Assembly (NCBI GenBank): GCA_017396545.1
Contig: JAFQLT010000134.1
Span: forward strand, 1-48,759
Length of the DNA stretch: 48,759 nucleotides
DNA from: Bacteroidaceae bacterium
GTDB lineage: Bacteria > Bacteroidota > Bacteroidia > Bacteroidales > Bacteroidaceae
Direction of reading: 5' to 3'
Part shown: positions 206 through 38,761 of the stretch, piece after piece
How positions within the stretch are numbered: position 1 is the stretch's first letter
Layout of the letters: the number at the start of each line of letters is the position of its first letter
Notes under the pieces: generated by a model
Seen by the model: only the letters and a program-made list of their open reading frames with translations
What the model was told of the DNA's origin: nothing
Database searches by the model: none
Translations under genes and position numbers: made by a program

Positions 206-312
206 ATTTCGCGGATGTTTTTTTTTATCTGTGGAATTTCGGTGTGATTCGGTGTAACCGGTTGTTTTGTCAAATTTCAATTCCCTTTTTTGCGTTTTCC
301 AAAAGATATATA

Positions 313-320
313 TATCTTTG
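313..320 (+). promoter_or_regulatory. Candidate Bacteroidetes -7 promoter box (TATCTTTG, consensus TAnnTTTG)
   Basis: Exact TAnnTTTG match about 67 nt upstream of ATG 387, in an AT-rich stretch. Confidence 0.45.
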
Positions 321-386
321 CACGGATTATGGGGTCATTGCCCACCTCGAAGGAAAGTATTACCGTATAAAAAACACGTCACGACC

Positions 387-3300
387 ATGACAACGAAGAA
401 CAATACCGTACACGCTACATCGATTGCCGCAGAGGCAAAGCATAACCCGTCTTGCTGGCGACGCATCGCCACGCTGCTGACACTCGCCATGACCTTCGCC
501 TGGGCGGGGGCGCAGACACCGACGACCCTGGCCGAAGGCGTGTATACGATACGCAATGTATACAACAGCCGTGGTACCATGTGCTATGGAAAGTACAGCG
601 GTACCGAGTATTTCGGTATGGCGGATATCACGTTGAGTGGACATCAGGGCAAGAGCCTGACGGTGGAGCAGGATGCCAACAAGCACTGGTATGTGCTTGC
701 TACCGACCAGGGTACCTATATCTACAACCTCGGCAAGGAGATGTTCCTGCAGGTGGCCGCTAATGATGTAGCTGCGGTATGTGATGCCAAGTGCGGTGGA
801 AGCTTTGCGCTGGAGAGCCGCACGATAGGTGGCACAGCGTATACGTTCGTCAAGAATGCCGACAAGTATCTCTCGTTCTGCTGCTATGTGCCCACTGCCG
901 GGGCGCAGCTCCGTTGGTTGGCTTATGAAGCCGAAGCAGCGGCACTGACGTTTGAGGCGGTGGCTGATGGAACGACCACCTATGCTACCGAGATTGCTGA
1001 GGCCAAGGCGGCAATCAATGAGTACGAGGGCCTCCGGATCAGTGTAGATGGCTGGTATGTGAGCATAACAGCGGAAGATGGTGCCACGATATACTATACG
1101 ACCGATGACACGGAGCCGACCGAGGCTTCTACCCCGTATGTGGCCCCATTCTCGCACGAAGGCTGCAAGGCCATCAAGGCCATTGCGGTGAAGGACGGCG
1201 AGAAATCCGAGGTTGTGACCTTTACGGCGAAATCGTCCAGTAATGTTACTTGTGCGGCTGGACAAAACCATGCCGAGGTGACCTTCACGGCAGGGGAGAA
1301 TGTCACCTACTACTATACTACCGACGGCTCTACGCCCGGTGAGGCATCGCAGTCCATCGCGGCAGGTAGCAGCCAGACACTCAGCGTGGCCGGAACGACA
1401 GTCAAGGTGGTGGCACTCGAGCAGGGCAAGCTGGCATCGGATGTGGTGACGGTGCACCCGGCCCTGGGCGTGGCACCGCAGGTGAGCGGCGCTACGCAGA
1501 CCTATACCTACCGTATCGTCAACACCCGTCTCCGTCTGGATGTCAATAACTCTAAGGTGCGCTACCTCTACCCCTTGGCCGAACAGGGCACCTACGGCCG
1601 TTGGCTGAAGCTGGCGGCTACGGGTGACGAGTCGGCCACGAGCGAGCAGTACTGGTACTTAGTGGATGCCGGGGACGGCTATCGCTATATCGTAAGCCGC
1701 CAGACGGGCGAATACCTGTATTACAATACCACTGCTGTAAGTGGGCAACTGCGTTTCGAGATGTCGCCATCGCACCGCACGAAGTTCAAGATAGTGCCCT
1801 CGCTGTTTCCGGGTAGTGACGGTGCCAAATACTGTTCGTACAATATCGTCCCGGCCGACAACCAAGGGGTGAGCTTCAACCCTCATGGCGGAGAGACGGG
1901 CTTTATCGCCTCGTATGGCAAGGGCGACGGCGGCTCGCACTGGTACTTCACCGACGAGGTGGAGGTGACCCGCTTGGCGACTCCCGAGATTACCCTGCAG
2001 GGGCAGAACGTGGTGATGACCCAGTCTGCCGGCGCTACCATACGCTATACCACCGACAGCACACGGCCTACGGAGGAGACGGGCACGGAGTATACGGGCG
2101 AGTTCCCGCACGAGCCCTTCGCGGCCGGCGACAGGATATTGGCGGCAGCGATAGCCCCCGAAGAGGTGGTGGAGGTGCCCGAAGGAGGAGTCATCGTGGA
2201 TACCGGGAACGAGGCGGCTGCCGGCGAGTCGCTGGCCATCGGCAGACGCGGCATCGCACGGAGCGGCAGCGTCGTCTACAGCTCGGCCGTGGCCATCAAG
2301 GTGCTGGAGGCTTCTGCAGTCCCCTTCACGACCATCAATGTCAACTATACCAAGGTGATGATTGCCAATGGTGTGGACGACGCTACCATCTACTATACCT
2401 TGGATGGGAATGACCCCACCTATACATCGGCATCGGCGGTAGGGAAGGCCGACCTGAACTATAGTGACTGTGAGGGCAATACCATCAAGGCATTTGCCTT
2501 GGTGGATGGCTATCTGCGGTCGGCCATCGTGGAAACCAGCATGGCATATACGGCTATTGACAGCCAGTTTTACTTCAGTACGTTCAACCCCGCAGGCCTG
2601 TATTATCTGACCGAAGACATCACGCTGCCCGATGCTATTGCCGCTACCTTCACCGGCGTACTCGACGGATGCCACCATACCATCAGCGGGCTCACGGCAC
2701 CGCTCTTCGGCAGTGCCGACGGCGCCACCATCAAGAACGTGGTGCTCAGCGGTGTCAACATCACAGGCGGCACAGGCAATGTGGGCGCTATCGTGGGGAC
2801 GGCTACGGGTGCCACGCGCATCTATAACTGCGGTGTGCAGAGCGGCTCGGTAGGCGGAGGCGACAACGTGGGCAGCATAGCCGGAAAGCTCGAAGGCAGC
2901 GCACGCGTAGTCAACTGCTACAGCTTTGCCGACATCACGGGCGGCACCACCGTGGCGGGTATCGTGGGCTACAACGGCGTGGCCTCCACGGCCAGCAACC
3001 TGCAGACCTTAGTGGTGAACTGCATGTACTATGGCGACATCACGGGCGGCACGAACGTGTATCCCATCTATGGCGGCGAGAAAATATCGAACTCGGGCGC
3101 CAACGGCATCAACAACTACAACTACTACCGCCACGAGGCACAGATCACGCCTACGGCCTACAACTGTGCACTGGCAGCCGAGGATAAGTATTTGACCCGC
3201 TTCGAGTTTTACCGCCATGTGCTCAACTCGCAGCGCAAGCTCTCGGCTTACTACGTTACAGGGAACGTCAACGACTATGAGCGGATAGCCAAGTGGGTGC

Positions 3301-5684
3301 TCGATACCGAGGTGGCCCAATATCCCATACTGAAGCCGTGGGGAGAGTATGCATCGCCCATCAACCGCAAGCCGGTGAACGTATTGGATACGCTGACGGT
3401 GAACATCCAGGGTGTGGACGCTGAGAACGGTACGCTGGCAGGGAAGGCGCTGTCGCTGCCCATCACCGATGTGGACCCCGCTACGCACGACTACAACTAT
3501 TATAAGGTGCAGTTGCCCTACTATAACGACCACTACACCGACAACTATACCAATAATAAGGTGGTGACGGGATGGAAGATTACCGCTATCACAGGCGGCA
3601 CCCCAGGCGAGCTCACCACCACGGGTGACAACCGCTACAACTTTGCCGACCGCAAGTGCACACAGAAGGACCTGTTCGACGTGTCGGACCGTGTGCTGGC
3701 CCAGGGCGGATTCTTCAATGTTCCCGAAGGGGTGACGGGCATCACCATCGAGCCTTATTGGGGCAAGGCGGTGTACCTCTCGGACCGCTACTACGACGTA
3801 CGCTATAGTGGTGCTACGGGGCATGGCCTTACCCAGCTGGGCGAGACACCGGACACCTATAACGGGCAGACGGTGTACAAGACGTTGGATGCCGTGTGGG
3901 AACAGCTCGGTTGGGAAACGACCCCGTTTGACAACGCCATCGTGTTGGTGGGCAACTATCACTCGTATGACGAGGCGTGGCATAATGGCGGCAACAAACA
4001 GTTTACCATCATGTCGGTGGACGACAACCGCGACGATGAGCCCGACTATAGCCTCTACTTCAAGACATCGGTGCGTGTGCCGGTCAATCCCGTGCGCTTC
4101 GACTTCATCAACCACGTCAACCTGGGTATGGCAGCCAAGGAGGATGGCAGGCAGGATATGGCCGGTGTGGCTATCTTCAAACCTAAAGGATGGTTTGAGG
4201 TGACGGAGACCGCCCTGGCACTCTACACGGAGTTTGAGTACGACATCAATGACTCGCACAAGGATGAGGCTCCGCTCATCCTCAATGGCGGTATCTACGA
4301 ACAGTTCTGCTCGGCCTTCTACGGTAGCTATGCCAACAAGACCTTGTATACCATTGTGGGCGGCAACTGCTACTTCAAGGCATATACGCCGGGATGCCAG
4401 AGTGGCGCTTCCGCCAAGACAAACTTCCCGCCGGTGTCTATCCTGGGCGGTGAGTACGAGGAGTTCTACCTGTCGGGTGTGAAAGCCGATGTGACCCCAG
4501 TGGAGAACTACAATGCCCTCTGCTACGGCAATGGAGGTAAGATAGGTGTGTTTGCCGGTGCCTATCAGGAGCAGATCAATGGCGATGTCATCGTCAAGGT
4601 AGACCACCTGATGGTAGATGAGTTCTACGGCGGAGGCATCAACGACAAGAAGCCTATACTGGGCAACATCAACATCACCATCGACAACAGCCATGTGGGT
4701 GTCTACTGCGGTGGCCCCAAGTTTGGCAATATGGCCGAAGGCAAGACGGTGACCACCCAGGCTACGGGCACCACGTTCGGGCAGTTCTATGGTGCCGGGT
4801 ATGGAGGTACCAGCCTGTATCGCCATAAGCATAACGACAGCAATGGTCAGACAACCTATAATACTGCTTGGTTTGATACCTATAGCAATAACCGAGGAAA
4901 GTACTATAATACGGACGGTAGCGACCGAGGTATTATGGTAGACTACGAGATGGAGCACTTCTGCTATGCCGGTGGCGGTAGCGTGAATGCCCGCTTCTAT
5001 ACCAACTATGCCTCACTCTCGGTGGCCGAGGTGCGCAACGTCACCACGACACTTACCCGCTGCACCATCAACGGCGACCTCTATGGCGGTGGCTGTCAGG
5101 GTAAGGCAACGGGAACGCTCGTCACCACGCTCACCGACTGTACGGTCAACGGAAGCGCCTTTGCCGGCGGCTACTCGGCTGCGGTGCCCACCTGTGCGGT
5201 GATGCCTGGAACCCCGCCCATCTCCTTCTCTACCTATAATACGAATACGGGTGTGTTCACCCCGCCGGTATATCCCGACCCCGTAGCCTATACCTGGGCG
5301 AAAGCTAATGCGGAATTGGTACACGATGGCGAATATATCAGCGATGAAGAGAAGAAGGAGATATATACCGAGGTAGACCTTACCGACCTGGGTACGGTAT
5401 ATGGCGCTACCCGCATGATTGTCAATGGCACCACGCACATCGCCGGTTCGGTGTTCGGCGGCGGTAACATGTCGAAGGTAAAGAACGGCCAGACCGAAAT
5501 CATCATCGACGGTGCCGGCGTAGTCATCGACGACTCGGTATTCGGCGGCGGCAATGAGGCACAGGTAGTTGGCAACACGCATGTGCACATCAAGAACGGT
5601 ACCGTGAACGGCAACGTCTATGGAGCCGGCAACAAGGCCGAGGTGACGGGCACCACGGATGTGGTGATCGGTGGAGGAGAGTGA
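387..5684 (+). CDS. Giant secreted surface protein (1765 aa) with lectin-like modules, Fn3-like repeats, a GLUG-like block and a beta-helix-like C-terminus
   Basis: The ORF is uninterrupted (track 267..5684). I place the start at ATG 387 (MTTKNN...), which gives a charged N-region followed by the hydrophobic signal-like segment IATLLTLAMTFAWAGAQ. Four copies of the (A/V)TI(Y/R)YT(T/L)D..P motif are present (GATIYYTTDDTEP, NVTYYYTTDGSTP, GATIRYTTDSTRP, DATIYYTLDGNDP), typical of chitobiase/hexosaminidase C-terminal Fn3-like domains. There is a GLUG-like glycine-rich block (NVGAIVGTATG, NVGSIAGKLEG, TVAGIVGYNG). The C-terminus carries repeated (F/Y)GGG(N/I/C) beta-helix-like units. The protein ends ...VVIGGGE with no T9SS tail. 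Confidence 0.85.
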   Translation: MTTKNNTVHATSIAAEAKHNPSCWRRIATLLTLAMTFAWAGAQTPTTLAEGVYTIRNVYNSRGTMCYGKYSGTEYFGMADITLSGHQGKSLTVEQDANKHWYVLATDQGTYIYNLGKEMFLQVAANDVAAVCDAKCGGSFALESRTIGGTAYTFVKNADKYLSFCCYVPTAGAQLRWLAYEAEAAALTFEAVADGTTTYATEIAEAKAAINEYEGLRISVDGWYVSITAEDGATIYYTTDDTEPTEASTPYVAPFSHEGCKAIKAIAVKDGEKSEVVTFTAKSSSNVTCAAGQNHAEVTFTAGENVTYYYTTDGSTPGEASQSIAAGSSQTLSVAGTTVKVVALEQGKLASDVVTVHPALGVAPQVSGATQTYTYRIVNTRLRLDVNNSKVRYLYPLAEQGTYGRWLKLAATGDESATSEQYWYLVDAGDGYRYIVSRQTGEYLYYNTTAVSGQLRFEMSPSHRTKFKIVPSLFPGSDGAKYCSYNIVPADNQGVSFNPHGGETGFIASYGKGDGGSHWYFTDEVEVTRLATPEITLQGQNVVMTQSAGATIRYTTDSTRPTEETGTEYTGEFPHEPFAAGDRILAAAIAPEEVVEVPEGGVIVDTGNEAAAGESLAIGRRGIARSGSVVYSSAVAIKVLEASAVPFTTINVNYTKVMIANGVDDATIYYTLDGNDPTYTSASAVGKADLNYSDCEGNTIKAFALVDGYLRSAIVETSMAYTAIDSQFYFSTFNPAGLYYLTEDITLPDAIAATFTGVLDGCHHTISGLTAPLFGSADGATIKNVVLSGVNITGGTGNVGAIVGTATGATRIYNCGVQSGSVGGGDNVGSIAGKLEGSARVVNCYSFADITGGTTVAGIVGYNGVASTASNLQTLVVNCMYYGDITGGTNVYPIYGGEKISNSGANGINNYNYYRHEAQITPTAYNCALAAEDKYLTRFEFYRHVLNSQRKLSAYYVTGNVNDYERIAKWVLDTEVAQYPILKPWGEYASPINRKPVNVLDTLTVNIQGVDAENGTLAGKALSLPITDVDPATHDYNYYKVQLPYYNDHYTDNYTNNKVVTGWKITAITGGTPGELTTTGDNRYNFADRKCTQKDLFDVSDRVLAQGGFFNVPEGVTGITIEPYWGKAVYLSDRYYDVRYSGATGHGLTQLGETPDTYNGQTVYKTLDAVWEQLGWETTPFDNAIVLVGNYHSYDEAWHNGGNKQFTIMSVDDNRDDEPDYSLYFKTSVRVPVNPVRFDFINHVNLGMAAKEDGRQDMAGVAIFKPKGWFEVTETALALYTEFEYDINDSHKDEAPLILNGGIYEQFCSAFYGSYANKTLYTIVGGNCYFKAYTPGCQSGASAKTNFPPVSILGGEYEEFYLSGVKADVTPVENYNALCYGNGGKIGVFAGAYQEQINGDVIVKVDHLMVDEFYGGGINDKKPILGNINITIDNSHVGVYCGGPKFGNMAEGKTVTTQATGTTFGQFYGAGYGGTSLYRHKHNDSNGQTTYNTAWFDTYSNNRGKYYNTDGSDRGIMVDYEMEHFCYAGGGSVNARFYTNYASLSVAEVRNVTTTLTRCTINGDLYGGGCQGKATGTLVTTLTDCTVNGSAFAGGYSAAVPTCAVMPGTPPISFSTYNTNTGVFTPPVYPDPVAYTWAKANAELVHDGEYISDEEKKEIYTEVDLTDLGTVYGATRMIVNGTTHIAGSVFGGGNMSKVKNGQTEIIIDGAGVVIDDSVFGGGNEAQVVGNTHVHIKNGTVNGNVYGAGNKAEVTGTTDVVIGGGE

Positions 5685-5690
5685 TGTCAA

Positions 5691-5739
5691 TTGACAGTTG
5701 AAAGTTGACAATGGACAATTGACAGTTGACAATGGACAA
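5691..5739 (+). repeat. Seven tandem heptamers: TTGACAG TTGAAAG TTGACAA TGGACAA TTGACAG TTGACAA TGGACAA
   Basis: Read directly from the sequence. The array begins 7 nt after the TGA stop (5682-5684). TGTCAA/TTGACA forms a 12-nt perfect palindrome at 5685-5696. Confidence 0.9.
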
Positions 5740-5747
5740 TAAAAACA

Positions 5748-5777
5748 AGCCCACAAGGTAGCGCTACCTTGTGGGCT
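5748..5777. terminator. Bidirectional intrinsic terminator hairpin between convergent genes
   Basis: Perfect palindrome AGCCCACAAGGTAGC/GCTACCTTGTGGGCT. The AAAAACA run on its left becomes a U-run for the minus-strand gene. Confidence 0.7.
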
Positions 5778-5805
5778 ATATTGTTGCCTTAATTACTACG
5801 ACCCG

Positions 5806-7704: not shown

Positions 7705-7715
7705 TCTTTTTAGAC

Positions 7716-7924
7716 TATAAAGGAGATAAATGGAGTTAAAGGCCAATAGCTCTTAGGAGTCAGGAGTTAAAGGGAGTTATCGCTTCGCTCTTGGGGAGAT
7801 AAAGGCCAATAGCTCTTTCGCGCGTAATAACTATTGGCATTTAACTCCATTTAACTCCTTCTATCTCCCTTTATCTCCTAAACATTTGGCCTTTATCTCC
7901 ATTTAACTCTCTTTATCTCCTATA
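7716..7924. repeat. Imperfect palindrome of about 209 nt built from 10-nt-period words, filling the adk-obg spacer
   Basis: The words are GGAGATAAA, GGAGTTAAA and GGCCAATAG with their complements. The left half (7716-7815) carries purine-rich words and the right half (7826-7924) their complements (TTTAACTCC, TTTATCTCC, CTATTGGC). Terminal pairing was checked by hand: 7722-7730 with 7912-7920, 7733-7740 with 7902-7909, and 7741-7746 with 7886-7891 after a 10-nt word-sized bulge. Confidence 0.8.
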
Positions 7925-7937
7925 AACAAGAAGAATT

Positions 7938-35309: not shown

Positions 35310-35317
35310 TACCTTTG
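35310..35317 (+). promoter_or_regulatory. Candidate -7 box TACCTTTG for yceD-rpmF
   Basis: Exact TAnnTTTG match about 52 nt upstream of ATG 35369. Confidence 0.45.
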
Positions 35318-35368
35318 TCGCCCGATTGGCTACATCCACTCGGATGCGACCAAAAAAATGGAAAGAAA

Positions 35369-35935
35369 ATGGGTAAGTTTGACAGTTATAAGATAGACCT
35401 GCGAGGGATGAAAGAGGTGGATGCCTCTTACGACTTGAGTGTCGATAACGAGTTCTTTGCCCATATTGACGGCCCCGAGGTGCAGAAGGGCAAGGTGCAG
35501 GTGGCGCTCGACGTACACCGCAGTGTCGATACCTACGAGATGAATTTCGTGCTCGACGGTGTGGTAGTGGTTAGTTGCGACCGTTGTCTCGACGAGATGG
35601 ACCTTGACATACACACTACGGGCAAGTTGCAGGTAAAGCTGGGTGCCGACTATGGTGAGCAGGGCGATGTGGTGATTATCCCCGAGGCTGAGGGAGTCAT
35701 CAATGTGGCTTGGTACATCTACGAGTTCGTGGCGCTGGCAATCCCGATGAAGCACGTACATGCTCCAGGCAAATGCAACAAAGAGATGTCCGGCAAGCTG
35801 AGCAAGCATTTGCTGCGCTCGACCGATGATGAAGACTTCGGCGGAGAGGCAATCACGTTCGGCAATGAGACGGACGAAGCGGAAACCCCAGTGGATCCGC
35901 GTTGGGAAGGTTTAAAGAAAATAATTAATAATTAA
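35369..35935 (+). CDS. YceD/DUF177 family protein (188 aa)
   Basis: It holds the conserved position directly upstream of rpmF and carries the C-x2-C motif (SCDRCLDEM). The start is placed at ATG 35369 (MGKFDSYKIDL). Confidence 0.85.
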   Translation: MGKFDSYKIDLRGMKEVDASYDLSVDNEFFAHIDGPEVQKGKVQVALDVHRSVDTYEMNFVLDGVVVVSCDRCLDEMDLDIHTTGKLQVKLGADYGEQGDVVIIPEAEGVINVAWYIYEFVALAIPMKHVHAPGKCNKEMSGKLSKHLLRSTDDEDFGGEAITFGNETDEAETPVDPRWEGLKKIINN

Positions 35936-35946
35936 AACTAACAGAA

Positions 35947-36132
35947 ATGGCACATCCTAAAAGAAGACAATCGAAGACCAGAACTGCCAAGAGAAGAACT
36001 CACGACAAGGCAGTAGCTCCTACATTGGCCATCTGCCCCAACTGTGGCGAGTGGCATGTATTCCACACTGTATGCGGCGCTTGCGGCTACTATCGTGGAA
36101 AGTTGGCTATCGAGAAAGAGGCTGCAGTATAA
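35947..36132 (+). CDS. rpmF: 50S ribosomal protein L32
   Basis: MAHPKRRQSKTRTAKRRTHDK..CPNCGEWHVFHTVCGACGYY. This is canonical bL32 with a zinc ribbon. Confidence 0.95.
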   Translation: MAHPKRRQSKTRTAKRRTHDKAVAPTLAICPNCGEWHVFHTVCGACGYYRGKLAIEKEAAV

Positions 36133-36151
36133 TCTGCGGCACGTTCGATTT

Positions 36152-36292
36152 AGTTGGGAGTTAGGAATTAGGAGTTAGGAGTTACATGCTCCGTCAAACC
36201 TAAATTCCTAACTCCTAACTTTATTTTAATTCTTGGATACAGTTGAGGGGGCTCCTAACTCCTCATTCCTAACTCCTAACTCCTAATTATTA
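36152..36292. repeat. Heptamer-word inverted array (GTTAGGA/ATTAGGA and complements) filling the rpmF-era spacer
   Basis: The left array is GTTGGGA GTTAGGA ATTAGGA GTTAGGA GTTAC at 36153-36185. Complementary arrays lie at 36199-36220 and 36252-36290. Hand-checked perfect pairings are 36166-36184 with 36270-36288 (19 bp) and 36173-36184 with 36209-36220 (12 bp). Confidence 0.85.
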
Positions 36293-36297
36293 AACCC

Positions 36298-37179
36298 GTG
36301 CACAAAGCAGGATTCGTAAATATCGTGGGCAACCCCAATGTGGGTAAGTCGACACTGATGAACAAGTTTGTCGGTGAACGCATATCCATTGCCACCTTCA
36401 AGGCGCAGACTACGCGTCACCGCATCATGGGAATCGTGAATACGGACGACATGCAGATCGTATTCTCCGACACGCCCGGCGTACTCAAGCCTAACTATAA
36501 GTTGCAGGAGTCAATGCTGCAGTTCTCCGAGTCGGCGTTGCAGGATGCCGATGTTCTCGTCTACGTCACCGACGTGGTGGAGAAGATCGACAAGAACCAG
36601 GACTTCTTGCAGAAGGTGCAGCGCATGGACGTTCCCATCCTGTTGCTCATCAACAAGATTGACATGAGCAATCAGAAGGAGCTTACCGCCCTCGTTGAGG
36701 AGTGGCACGAACTGTTGCCGCAGGCGGAGATTATTCCCATCTCGGCATCGAACAACTTCAATGTTGATGTAGTGCTACGCCGCATCAAGGATCTGTTGCC
36801 CGACAGTCCGCCCTTTTTCGACAAGGACCAGCTGACGGACAAACCCGCCCGTTTCTTCGTCACCGAGATTATCCGTGAAAAGATTCTCCTCTACTACGAT
36901 AAGGAGATACCTTACTCCTGTGAGGTGAGCGTGGAGCAGTTCAAGGAGACGGAGAAGAACATCCACATCAATGCAGTGATTTATGTGGAGCGCGAGTCGC
37001 AGAAGGGCATCATCATTGGCAACCAGGGCAAGGCGCTGAAGAAGGTGATGACCGAGGCACGCCGCTCTTTGGAGCAGTTCTTCGGCAAGAGCATATACCT
37101 CGAAACCTTTGTGAAAGTAGATAAGGATTGGCGCAACTCGGACAAGGAGCTGCGTAGCTTTGGATATAACCTTGAATAA
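36298..37179 (+). CDS. era: GTPase Era
   Basis: GTG start (VHKAGFVNIVGNPNVGKST). G motifs DTPG and NKID are present, with a C-terminal KH domain (VERESQKGIIIGNQGKALK). Confidence 0.95.
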   Translation: MHKAGFVNIVGNPNVGKSTLMNKFVGERISIATFKAQTTRHRIMGIVNTDDMQIVFSDTPGVLKPNYKLQESMLQFSESALQDADVLVYVTDVVEKIDKNQDFLQKVQRMDVPILLLINKIDMSNQKELTALVEEWHELLPQAEIIPISASNNFNVDVVLRRIKDLLPDSPPFFDKDQLTDKPARFFVTEIIREKILLYYDKEIPYSCEVSVEQFKETEKNIHINAVIYVERESQKGIIIGNQGKALKKVMTEARRSLEQFFGKSIYLETFVKVDKDWRNSDKELRSFGYNLE

Positions 37180-37263
37180 AATTAGGAGTTAGGAATTAGG
37201 AGTTGAAACTCCACGAAGCCCACCGCGGCACTAAAAATTCCTAACTCCTAATTCCTAATTTAG
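37178..37263. repeat. Second heptamer-word hairpin (AATTAGG AGTTAGG ...) filling the era-der spacer
   Basis: It starts at the era stop codon. A perfect 18-bp stem pairs 37180-37197 (AATTAGGAGTTAGGAATT) with 37236-37253. An inner 6-bp mini-hairpin is GGAGTT-gaa-AACTCC. The 18-mer differs by 1 nt from the one at 36166-36183. Confidence 0.85.
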
Positions 37264-37269
37264 TAAGAA

Positions 37270-38583
37270 ATGGGAAACTTAGTAGCTATCGTAGGACGCC
37301 CCAATGTGGGCAAGTCCACACTGTTTAACCGCTTCACACAGACGCGCCATGCTATCGTGGCTGATGAAGCTGGCACTACGCGCGACCGCCAGTACGGCAA
37401 GTGCGAATGGACGGGGCGCGAGTTCTCAATCGTCGACACTGGCGGTTGGGTAGTCAACTCCGATGACATCTTCGAAGAGGAAATCCGCAAGCAGGTGCTC
37501 ATCGCCGTGGAGGAGGCCGATGTGGTGCTCTTTCTCGTCGACGTGCAGAACGGTGTCACTGACCTCGACATGCAGGTGGCCTCCATCCTGCGCCGTTCGA
37601 AGACGCCCGTCATCCTCGTGTCCAACAAGACCGACAACTACGATCTGCAGTACAATGCCGCCGAGTTCTATTCGCTCGGTCTGGGCGACCCCTTCTGCGT
37701 ATCGGCACTTACGGGTAGCGGCACGGGTGACCTGCTCGACATGGTCGTCGAGAAACTGCCTGCACCTACCCCCGACGAAGCCGAAGAGGAGATCCCCCGC
37801 TTTGCTGTCGTGGGTCGTCCGAATGTGGGCAAGAGCTCTATCGTGAATGCCTTCATCGGCGAGGACCGCAACATCGTGACCAATATCGCCGGCACTACGC
37901 GCGACTCTATCTATACACGCTATACGAAGTTCGGCTTCGACTTCTACCTCGTCGATACCGCCGGTATCCGCAAGAAGGGCAAGGTGAACGAGGACCTTGA
38001 ATTCTACTCCGTGATGCGCTCTATCCGCGCCATCGAGAATGCCGACGTATGTATACTCATGCTCGATGCCACACGCGGACTCGAGAGTCAGGACCTCAAC
38101 ATCTACTCCCTTGTGCAGCGCAACCAGAAGGGCCTTGTGGTAGTTATCAATAAGTGGGACCTCGTGGAGGACAAGAGCACCAAGGCGATGAAGTACTTCG
38201 AAGACACCATCCGTGAGCGCTTTGCCCCCTTCACCGACTTCCCCATCGTGTTTGCCTCGGCACTCACCAAGCAGCGCATCTTCAAGGTGCTCGAGCTGGC
38301 CAAGGAGACCTACCTCAACCGCAACAACAAGGTGTCTACTGCGAAGCTCAACGAGGAGATGCTGCCCATCATCGAGGCCACGCCGCCCCCATCAAACAAG
38401 GGTAAGTATATCAAGATTAAGTATTGCATGCAGCTGCCTGGCACACGAGTGCCCTCATTCGTGTTCTTCGCCAACCTGCCGCAGTATGTGAAGGAACCCT
38501 ACAAGCGCTTCCTCGAAAACAAGATTCGCGAGCGCTGGAACTTCACGGGTACTCCGATTAATATATATATACGTCAGAAGTGA
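37270..38583 (+). CDS. der: GTPase Der/EngA (double G-domain)
   Basis: Two G-domains (GRPNVGKST appears twice; DTGG and DTAG; NKTD and NKWD) plus a KH-like C-terminus. Confidence 0.95.
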
Positions 38584-38599
38584 TATGAATCTACAATAA

Positions 38600-38640
38600 A
38601 AGGGGAGGGGGTGACTTTGCAAAGTCAGCCCCTCCCTTTC
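38600..38640 (+). terminator. Intrinsic terminator after der
   Basis: AAAGGGGAGGGGGTGACTTT-gc-AAAGTCAGCCCCTCCCTTT with one mismatch, followed by a T-rich tail. Confidence 0.7.
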
Positions 38641-38761
38641 TTTGCCTTTCCGGTTAACGATTTTATGGGCAATGACCCTCGGTTTTCCATGAATGAATGT
38701 TAAAATAGCTTCAGTTTGCCGAAAAACAGATTGTTTTTATTGTTCTTCAATAAATTGTTTA

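Follow-up and report, generated by a model that had tools for sequence, protein, structure and literature searches.

What is the long hairpin that fills the spacer between era and der in the Bacteroidota DNA analysed here (a stretch of 48,759 nucleotides, or 48.7 kb, hereafter the window), where does it come from, and does it matter for the two genes that it separates? The host appears to be a rumen Prevotella-like member of the Bacteroidota, the metagenome samples concerned seemingly coming from the ruminant gut, and its relatives carry the database labels Bacteroidaceae or Prevotella. The locus is laid out as follows:

35315-35935, + strand: yceD-like ORF
35947-36132, + strand: rpmF ORF
36298-37179, + strand: era ORF, encoding the GTPase Era (NF000908, E = 4.6e-109)
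37177-37179, + strand: era stop codon TAA, the next base being the first base of the hairpin
37270-38583, + strand: der, with its ATG at 37270
38602-38643 (approximately), + strand: GC-rich intrinsic terminator with a U tract, 3' of der, canonical in form and placed at the end of the operon

A terminator scan over 36133-37270 detected no terminator-like site in either of the spacers that flank era. Because both spacers are free of such sites and a canonical terminator follows der, the hairpins described below would be internal to a yceD-rpmF-era-der operon, whose co-transcription is suggested by the terminator positions. Among the 28 intergenic gaps that measure 40 nt or more, the three with the strongest structure are rpmF-era (z = -10.5), adk-obg (z = -8.9), and era-der (z = -7.0).

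The era-der hairpin is real and lies far beyond chance. The spacer measures 90 nt, and the hairpin (37180-37260) consists of AGGAGTT/AGGAATT words in tandem together with the complementary words, arranged in this way:

37180-37204, + strand: 5' arm of G-rich words, AATT followed by AGGAGTT AGGAATT AGGAGTT, with TAG stops in all three frames
37199-37212, + strand: inner mini-hairpin (GGAGT-TGAA-ACTCC), able to form in place of the shifted register
37205-37235, + strand: loop of unique sequence, with no relation to the loop of the rpmF-era element
37236-37260, + strand: 3' arm of C-rich words, AATTCCT AACTCCT AATTCCT AATT, with TAA stops in all frames
37261-37269, + strand: A-rich unpaired leader adjoining the der ATG (unpaired probability of 0.61 at -9..-1)

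The loop that separates the two arms is 31 nt long, TAGTAAGAA stands between the 3' arm and the ATG, and the arms start with AATTAGG and end with CCTAATT. An earlier reading of this DNA, made without database searches (the sequence-only reading), had described the spacer as one hairpin with a perfect 18-bp stem, and this description holds: AATTAGGAGTTAGGAATT (37180-37197) pairs with 37236-37253 over 18 bp without any mismatch, 38 nt lying between the two, and the stem ends 16 nt 5' of the ATG. A small correction is that the stem has two registers. In the second one, shifted by one word, 37180-37204 pairs with 37236-37260 over 24 bp, with one mismatch and G-U pairs, and ends 9 nt 5' of the ATG. 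The enclosed mini-hairpin is also present, but its pairing is not the one that had been claimed; it is GGAGT-UGAA-ACUCC, i.e., 5 bp with a 4-nt loop. Folded as RNA, the spacer reaches -36.6 kcal/mol (z = -5.8), a value equalled in 0 of 200 shuffles. TRF reports period-7 arrays at 37182-37204 (3.3 copies) and 37236-37260 (3.6 copies), and, when at most one mismatch is allowed, AGGARTTAGGARTT has 12 occurrences in the window where chance would give 0.06, 11 of these 12 falling in the two era-flanking spacers. With its 18-24 bp, the stem has a length compatible with an RNase III site (a dsRNA stem of about 20 bp or more). In Rfam, the matches did not rise above chance level (miRNA models, 27.7 bits for a gathering score of 102), and a literal search of the literature for the sequence returned nothing relevant.

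The spacer on the other side of era, between rpmF and era, carries a sister element, whose arms were delimited by an inverted-pair search:

36151-36289, + strand: whole sister element (-69.8 kcal/mol, z = -9.0)
36152-36184, + strand: 5' arm, GGGAGTT AGGAATT AGGAGTT AGGAGTT
36203-36220, + strand: near 3' arm, followed by TTTATTTTAATT
36252-36288, + strand: far 3' arm

Its first base lies about 19 nt past the rpmF stop codon, and TRF detects period-7 arrays of 4.7 and 5.0 copies upstream of era. The 18-mer of the era-der stem had been said to differ at one position from the stem 18-mer at 36166-36183, which we confirmed: the latter reads AATTAGGAGTTAGGAGTT and shows one mismatch with 37180-37197. 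Hence, the idea that homologous elements bracket era stands as far as the shared heptamer words are concerned, and falls for the loops, which are unrelated. The words could have spread locally between the two spacers. The 5' arm of the sister element can pair either with the near arm, which with TTTATTTTAATT behind it has a terminator-like look, or with the far arm, giving an attenuator-like layout. Its loop also contains a 5-codon mini-ORF, the ATG of which (36186) is located four bases past an AGGAG. As for the junction itself, most relatives (L253-L335) have fabH between rpmF and era, and their era start codon has a canonical terminator 25-30 nt upstream of it; the clade of the window has no fabH at that place, and the word hairpin sits at the new rpmF-era junction.

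A stable stem between two genes could be a partial intrinsic terminator or attenuator that cuts read-through from era to der and from rpmF to era. The stability of the stem, the bases that follow the near arm upstream of era, and the canonical terminator found before era in most relatives go in this direction. However, the true terminators of this genome combine a GC-rich stem with a U tract, and the era-der hairpin has neither: its stem is AT-rich, the downstream bases are CCUAAUUUAG or UAGUAAGAA, and no U tract follows 37253 or 37260, in line with the negative terminator scan of both spacers. The same is true for hairpins of this type in general, since in 122 heptamer-word hairpins the 10 nt past the 3' arm contain on average 2.8 T, and TTTT in 4% of cases. 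We therefore regard a termination role as quite unlikely.

We collected about 90 era loci encoding Era proteins 80-99% identical to that of the window. About 90 relatives retain the gene order rpmF/fabH-era-der, irrespective of what the spacers contain, and the cassette boundary that had been envisaged for this place is not supported. The content of the era-der spacer, on the contrary, is extremely variable:

L372 (Era 99% identical): identical 90-nt hairpin
L252 (Era 97%): 3 nt
L368-L371 (Era 97%): unrelated GC-rich palindrome of 224 nt, -110 kcal/mol
L251 and L256 (Era 92%): 27 nt, with AACTCTT words only
Most other relatives (Era 80-86%): 30-50 nt, containing the small stem-loop described below
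L319 and L321 (Era 81%): 176-nt hairpins of TTAAGAG/TTAAGAA words
L320, L322, L323, L327, L330, L333, and L334 (Era 80-81%): further unrelated structured fillers

Within its own species, the era-der hairpin is identical in 10 out of 10 independent metagenome contigs with an identical Era protein, and it is also present in one NCBI MAG, which excludes an artefact of assembly; it is fixed across the 10 samples with a constant copy number. The assembly GCA_054275255.1 contains the same hairpin, and GCA_045654565.1 has a 3-nt spacer. Beyond the species, the comparison goes, as far as sequence is concerned, against the sequence-only reading by that reading's own standard, as era and der stay adjacent with a spacer that is nearly absent (3 nt, L252), a 224-nt palindrome (L368-L371), or, in most others, a small stem-loop. 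Since the closest relative, L252, has a spacer of only 3 nt, the element is not needed. The TTAAGAG-word hairpins of L319 and L321, which belong to two other lineages, represent independent gains at the same spot. The palindrome of L368 (1142-1365, also in L369-L371) and that of the era-der spacer of L327 (196 nt, -118 kcal/mol) are both long and GC-rich, and may be MITE-like elements.

The small stem-loop deserves more attention. In most relatives (L253-L335), a stem-loop of the form CGRCU-GUGA(N)-AGYCG, with a GNRA-type loop, is found 3-12 nt past the era stop. It covaries: 93.6% of the alignment cells are paired, three of its five pairs have changed on both sides, including compensatory A-U to G-C changes, and an equally good result was obtained in 0 of 500 shuffles. 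The mini-hairpin of the window (37199-37212) resembles this small stem-loop (GACT-GTGA-AGTC). Considering all distinct era-der spacers, 40 out of 53 have a stem-loop that starts at most 15 nt past the era stop. A stem-loop behind the era stop is thus the common state, of which the heptamer hairpin would be the version of one lineage, not a required one.

These comparisons also bear on the possibility that a dispersed mobile palindrome, either a RAYT-mobilised REP/BIME or a MITE, was inserted both upstream and downstream of era. The copies have words in common, a single gene lies between them, presence or absence varies between close relatives, as for MITEs, and other palindromic fillers, such as the 224-nt one of L368-L371, occupy the same spacer in other lineages. 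The sequence-only reading had spoken of REP/BIME-like intercistronic stabilisers. Since both elements lie in one operon, "intercistronic structure" is fair as a functional analogy; the REP/BIME of Enterobacteria and Pseudomonas are likewise extragenic palindromes within operons, with, in their case, an action on mRNA. Membership of that family, on the other hand, finds no support: in the 48.7-kb window there are only two sites, 1 kb apart, instead of many dispersed copies with a conserved core of 20-40 nt, neither GTAG nor CGTC is present at the end of the palindrome, and the arms are tandem 7-mers. A comparison with the 3-nt spacer of L252 and the 27-nt spacer of L251 reveals neither a clean insertion nor a target-site duplication. 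Unlike MITEs, the elements share no internal sequence, their arms being repeats of varying unit number. A mobile element with a shared core was rejected, as the loops are unrelated not only in the window but also among 17 hairpins from other genomes. The variation observed goes in 7-nt steps, as for a simple-sequence repeat, and we consider a mobile palindrome very unlikely.

How the words change is best seen in the rpmF-era hairpin, which L251, L252, and L256 keep in a form alignable with that of the window. In these sister species, the 5'-arm words are all AAGAGTT/AAGAGTG where the window has AGGAGTT/AGGAATT, and the 3'-arm words are all AACTCTT/CACTCTT where the window has AACTCCT. The compensatory word changes in both arms that the sequence-only reading had suggested seeking in the era-der spacer do exist, then, but at the other side of era (AGGAGTT/AACTCCT vs AAGAGTT/AACTCTT). 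Moreover, the era-der spacer of L251 uses the same genome-specific word as its rpmF-era hairpin, and L372 (1343-1500) shows a 7-nt deletion corresponding to exactly one AACTCCT word. The word change is the concerted evolution of a simple-sequence repeat in which the complementarity of the arms is preserved. The element probably originated by a slippage-type expansion of 7-nt units, and the arms may have stayed complementary through exchange with each other or because pairing was selected for. At a shorter time scale, a comparison of L001-L010 with the window shows two strain groups, separated by five substitutions between rpmF and era and by one between era and der, T37258C, which is polymorphic (4 of 10 contigs); one of the substitutions between strain groups turns a G-C pair into G-U in the sense RNA. 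The spacers diverge within the species by 1.1-3.0%, compared with 2-5% at third codon positions.

Such turnover is characteristic of a class of repeats that is already known. Heptanucleotide repeats are the most abundant class of long repeats in most of the prokaryotic genomes examined by Mrazek 2007, in the account given in PMC4679880. Intergenic arrays of TAACTGA were reported by MacGregor 2015 (PMC4679880) from Beggiatoaceae, Cyanobacteria, and some Bacteroidetes. In filamentous cyanobacteria, 7-bp STRR hairpins are located between hupS and hupL and elsewhere, where they have been suggested to stabilise the transcript or to couple translation (PMC2670836). The era-der element, which shows every testable defining feature of this kind of repeat, is best filed, judging from its sequence, as a heptamer simple-sequence-repeat hairpin of the STRR/LSSR kind. 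Indeed, TRF finds tandem 7-nt units in at least three copies, the array is intergenic, its words and copy number vary between close relatives in 7-nt steps, and inverted arrays form a hairpin between genes whose co-transcription is suggested by the terminators.

The likeness to the cyanobacterial STRR (hupS-hupL; Nostoc, Anabaena, Lyngbya) is close, as these also are 7-bp inverted arrays that form a hairpin between co-transcribed genes, in spacers that are highly variable yet structured among close relatives. Among the matches listed, the words AGGAGTT/AGGAATT are themselves abundant in Nostocales. However, the classical STRR1-3 words differ from these, the host of the era-der element is a Prevotella-like rumen Bacteroidota, its arrays are short (3-5 words), and its words are found in only two neighbouring spacers per 48.7 kb, where the Nostocales matches suggest a much wider occurrence. 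The TAACTGA arrays and the Mrazek repeats are, like the era-der arrays, intergenic heptamers near start or stop codons, scattered over phyla and showing 7-nt indels between strains. Because each heptamer word includes a stop codon, in TAACTGA as in the era-der element, the arrays cannot be read through. They differ in that the TAACTGA arrays are direct repeats without predicted structure (169 direct sets and one inverted), while the era-der element is an inverted pair that forms a hairpin. The era-der element is a new Bacteroidota example of known heptamer-repeat hairpins.

Is there anything special about its words? (AGGARTT)x3 is present at no fewer than 120 loci of the genome collection, in Nostocales, many Bacteroidota, Firmicutes, Verrucomicrobiota, CPR bacteria, and others, where our own arithmetic gives about 2 by chance in 596 Gb. 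It is present in at least 120 viral contigs as well. The 120 genome loci listed include none that is close to era, der, rpmF, or yceD, and an association of the word with era was rejected on this ground. Five-copy arrays in viral contigs number six loci for AGGAGTT, seven and five for two permutations of the same bases, and 20 for TAACTGA. As AGGAGTT arrays are no commoner than their permutations, the word is not special, its breadth reflecting the general abundance of heptamer repeats. A universally conserved special word was thereby discarded, the permuted controls being equally common and TAACTGA commoner.

This result also weighs on a more specific proposal, in which the hairpin is a feedback site. 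The KH domain of Era binds the 3' end of 16S rRNA. The CUCCU arm might then mimic this end, or the AGGAG arm might titrate the anti-Shine-Dalgarno, so that era and der would be autoregulated. The words do contain AGGAG/CUCCU, and words of the ARGARTK type recur by era or der in the window, in L251/L252/L256, in L319/L321, in L330, and in L331. But the words of the sister species, AAGAGTT/AACTCTT, have neither AGGAG nor CUCCU, which led us to reject mimicry of a Shine-Dalgarno or of the Era-KH site; the listed genome matches (120) include no locus with the same word near era; and the word is no commoner than its permuted controls. Moreover, both arms are paired and thus not free for binding. 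We judge such a feedback extremely improbable.

What, then, could the era-der hairpin do? We propose, with slightly better than even confidence, that it is a lineage-specific STRR/LSSR hairpin born by slippage, with a modulatory and dispensable effect on Era output or on the coupling of der. On the polycistronic mRNA, it would be an enlarged and replaceable version of the stem-loop that relatives carry behind the era stop. In E. coli, REP hairpins stall the ribosome and so lower the translation of the gene in front of them, but only if its stop codon is less than 16 nt away (Liang et al. 2015, in the terms in which PMC12306157 cites it). The era-der hairpin starts 1 nt past the era stop, unlike the rpmF-era hairpin with its distance of about 19 nt from the rpmF stop, and in a host that belongs to the Bacteroidota and not to the group for which this rule was established. 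Since a ribosome that terminates on era would still cover the start of the stem, the stem should hinder termination, and might thereby lower Era output as the E. coli REP hairpins do. On the other side, the 3' arm is predicted to mask positions -18..-10 of der, whose unpaired probability is 0.12 with the hairpin and 0.53 after its removal in silico. The initiation of der could then depend in part on ribosomes that finish era and melt the base of the stem, i.e., on translational coupling. Either way, the effect expected at the RNA level is modest, a lower Era output or a coupling of der translation to era. The frequency of stem-loops near the era stop among the 53 distinct spacers and the occlusion of the der leader argue for this explanation. 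The near-neutral divergence of the spacer within the species, the 3-nt spacer of the closest relative, and the parity of the sense and antisense folds argue against it. Indeed, the hairpin folds with -33.6 kcal/mol in sense and -34.9 kcal/mol in antisense, and it is not among the five of eight word hairpins for which the sense strand is the better folder, as would be expected if G-U pairs had been selected in the sense RNA. As sense and antisense RNA fold equally well, the sense transcript is not singled out as the selected form.

This parity, together with dispensability, makes neutrality a serious rival. The hairpin could be a selfish or accidental by-product of template switching and slippage of heptamers in a spacer that tolerates such changes, without selectable effect on era or der, a reading that we hold to be possible but doubtful. 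Its absence or replacement in the closest relatives, the near-neutral divergence, the fact that arrays of arbitrary words are equally common, and the abundance of long heptanucleotide repeats in most of the prokaryotic genomes covered by Mrazek 2007 (via PMC4679880) are all consistent with it. Against it, three quarters of the distinct spacers (40/53) keep a stem-loop after the era stop and the small version covaries, the complementarity of the rpmF-era hairpin has outlived a complete replacement of its words, and the era-der element is fixed with constant copy number across 10 samples. To return to the slippage-born modulatory hairpin that we favour, its membership of a known fast-evolving repeat class and its absence from the closest relatives make it at most a dispensable tuning element. 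Being dispensable and specific to one lineage, it matters little for era and der themselves.

Its interest lies elsewhere. Within one clade, the same spacer contains nothing, a 5-bp stem-loop, a heptamer hairpin, or a 224-nt palindrome, which makes a clean natural series. Such a series could show the effect of a stem-loop placed right behind a stop codon on the neighbouring genes in Bacteroidota. In addition, STRR-like hairpins, so far mainly described in cyanobacteria, are found here in gut Bacteroidota and in phages.

A further property concerns the orientation of the arms. We took all the period-7 arrays of about 370 fetched loci (L011-L372) and of the window, from bacteria and phages, and removed duplicates. 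Of the 120 heptamer-word hairpins left, 112 have the G-rich array as 5' arm, 6 have the C-rich one there, and 2 are ties. Where a strict AGGARTT run has a complementary partner within 300 nt, this partner is downstream in 50 cases and upstream in none, and the bias extends to words outside the AGGARTT family (76 vs 5). A hairpin of this polarity looks alike whichever strand is read, so that the rule does not depend on the direction of transcription, and U tracts do not explain it. It also holds in the cyanobacterial loci among these hairpins; cyanobacteria are not known to have Rho. The long palindrome of L368-L371 has its C-rich arm first, opposite to the heptamer hairpins. This G-rich-arm-first rule, strong and unexplained, may hint at the origin of such repeats. 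It could come from a dedicated generating mechanism, e.g., synthesis that folds back from 3' ends rich in G and T, or the joining of extended ends head to head, or, alternatively, from a common co-transcriptional function. A broader view, which we find unlikely, is that heptamer-word hairpins form a distinct cross-phylum class and not random repeat debris, recruited in this Prevotella lineage before obg, era, and der, perhaps as adjustable valves of translational coupling.

Other repeats of the window are worth recording. The adk-obg spacer (7705-7937) contains a 233-nt hairpin (-80 kcal/mol, z = -8.9) made of the 10-nt words GGAGATAAAG/GGAGTTAAAG and their complements, so that a word hairpin is present directly 5' of all three ribosome-assembly GTPase genes of the window (obg, era, and der). 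Directly past the stop codon of a 1805-aa ORF (267-5684), seven tandem heptamers, TGACAGT/TGAAAGT/TGACAAT/GGACAAT, occupy 5685-5740. They constitute a second heptamer word family of this genome. A GC-rich hairpin comes next, at about 5748-5779; a similar heptamer array, of AATTGAC words, is found in L256 at 3997-4028.
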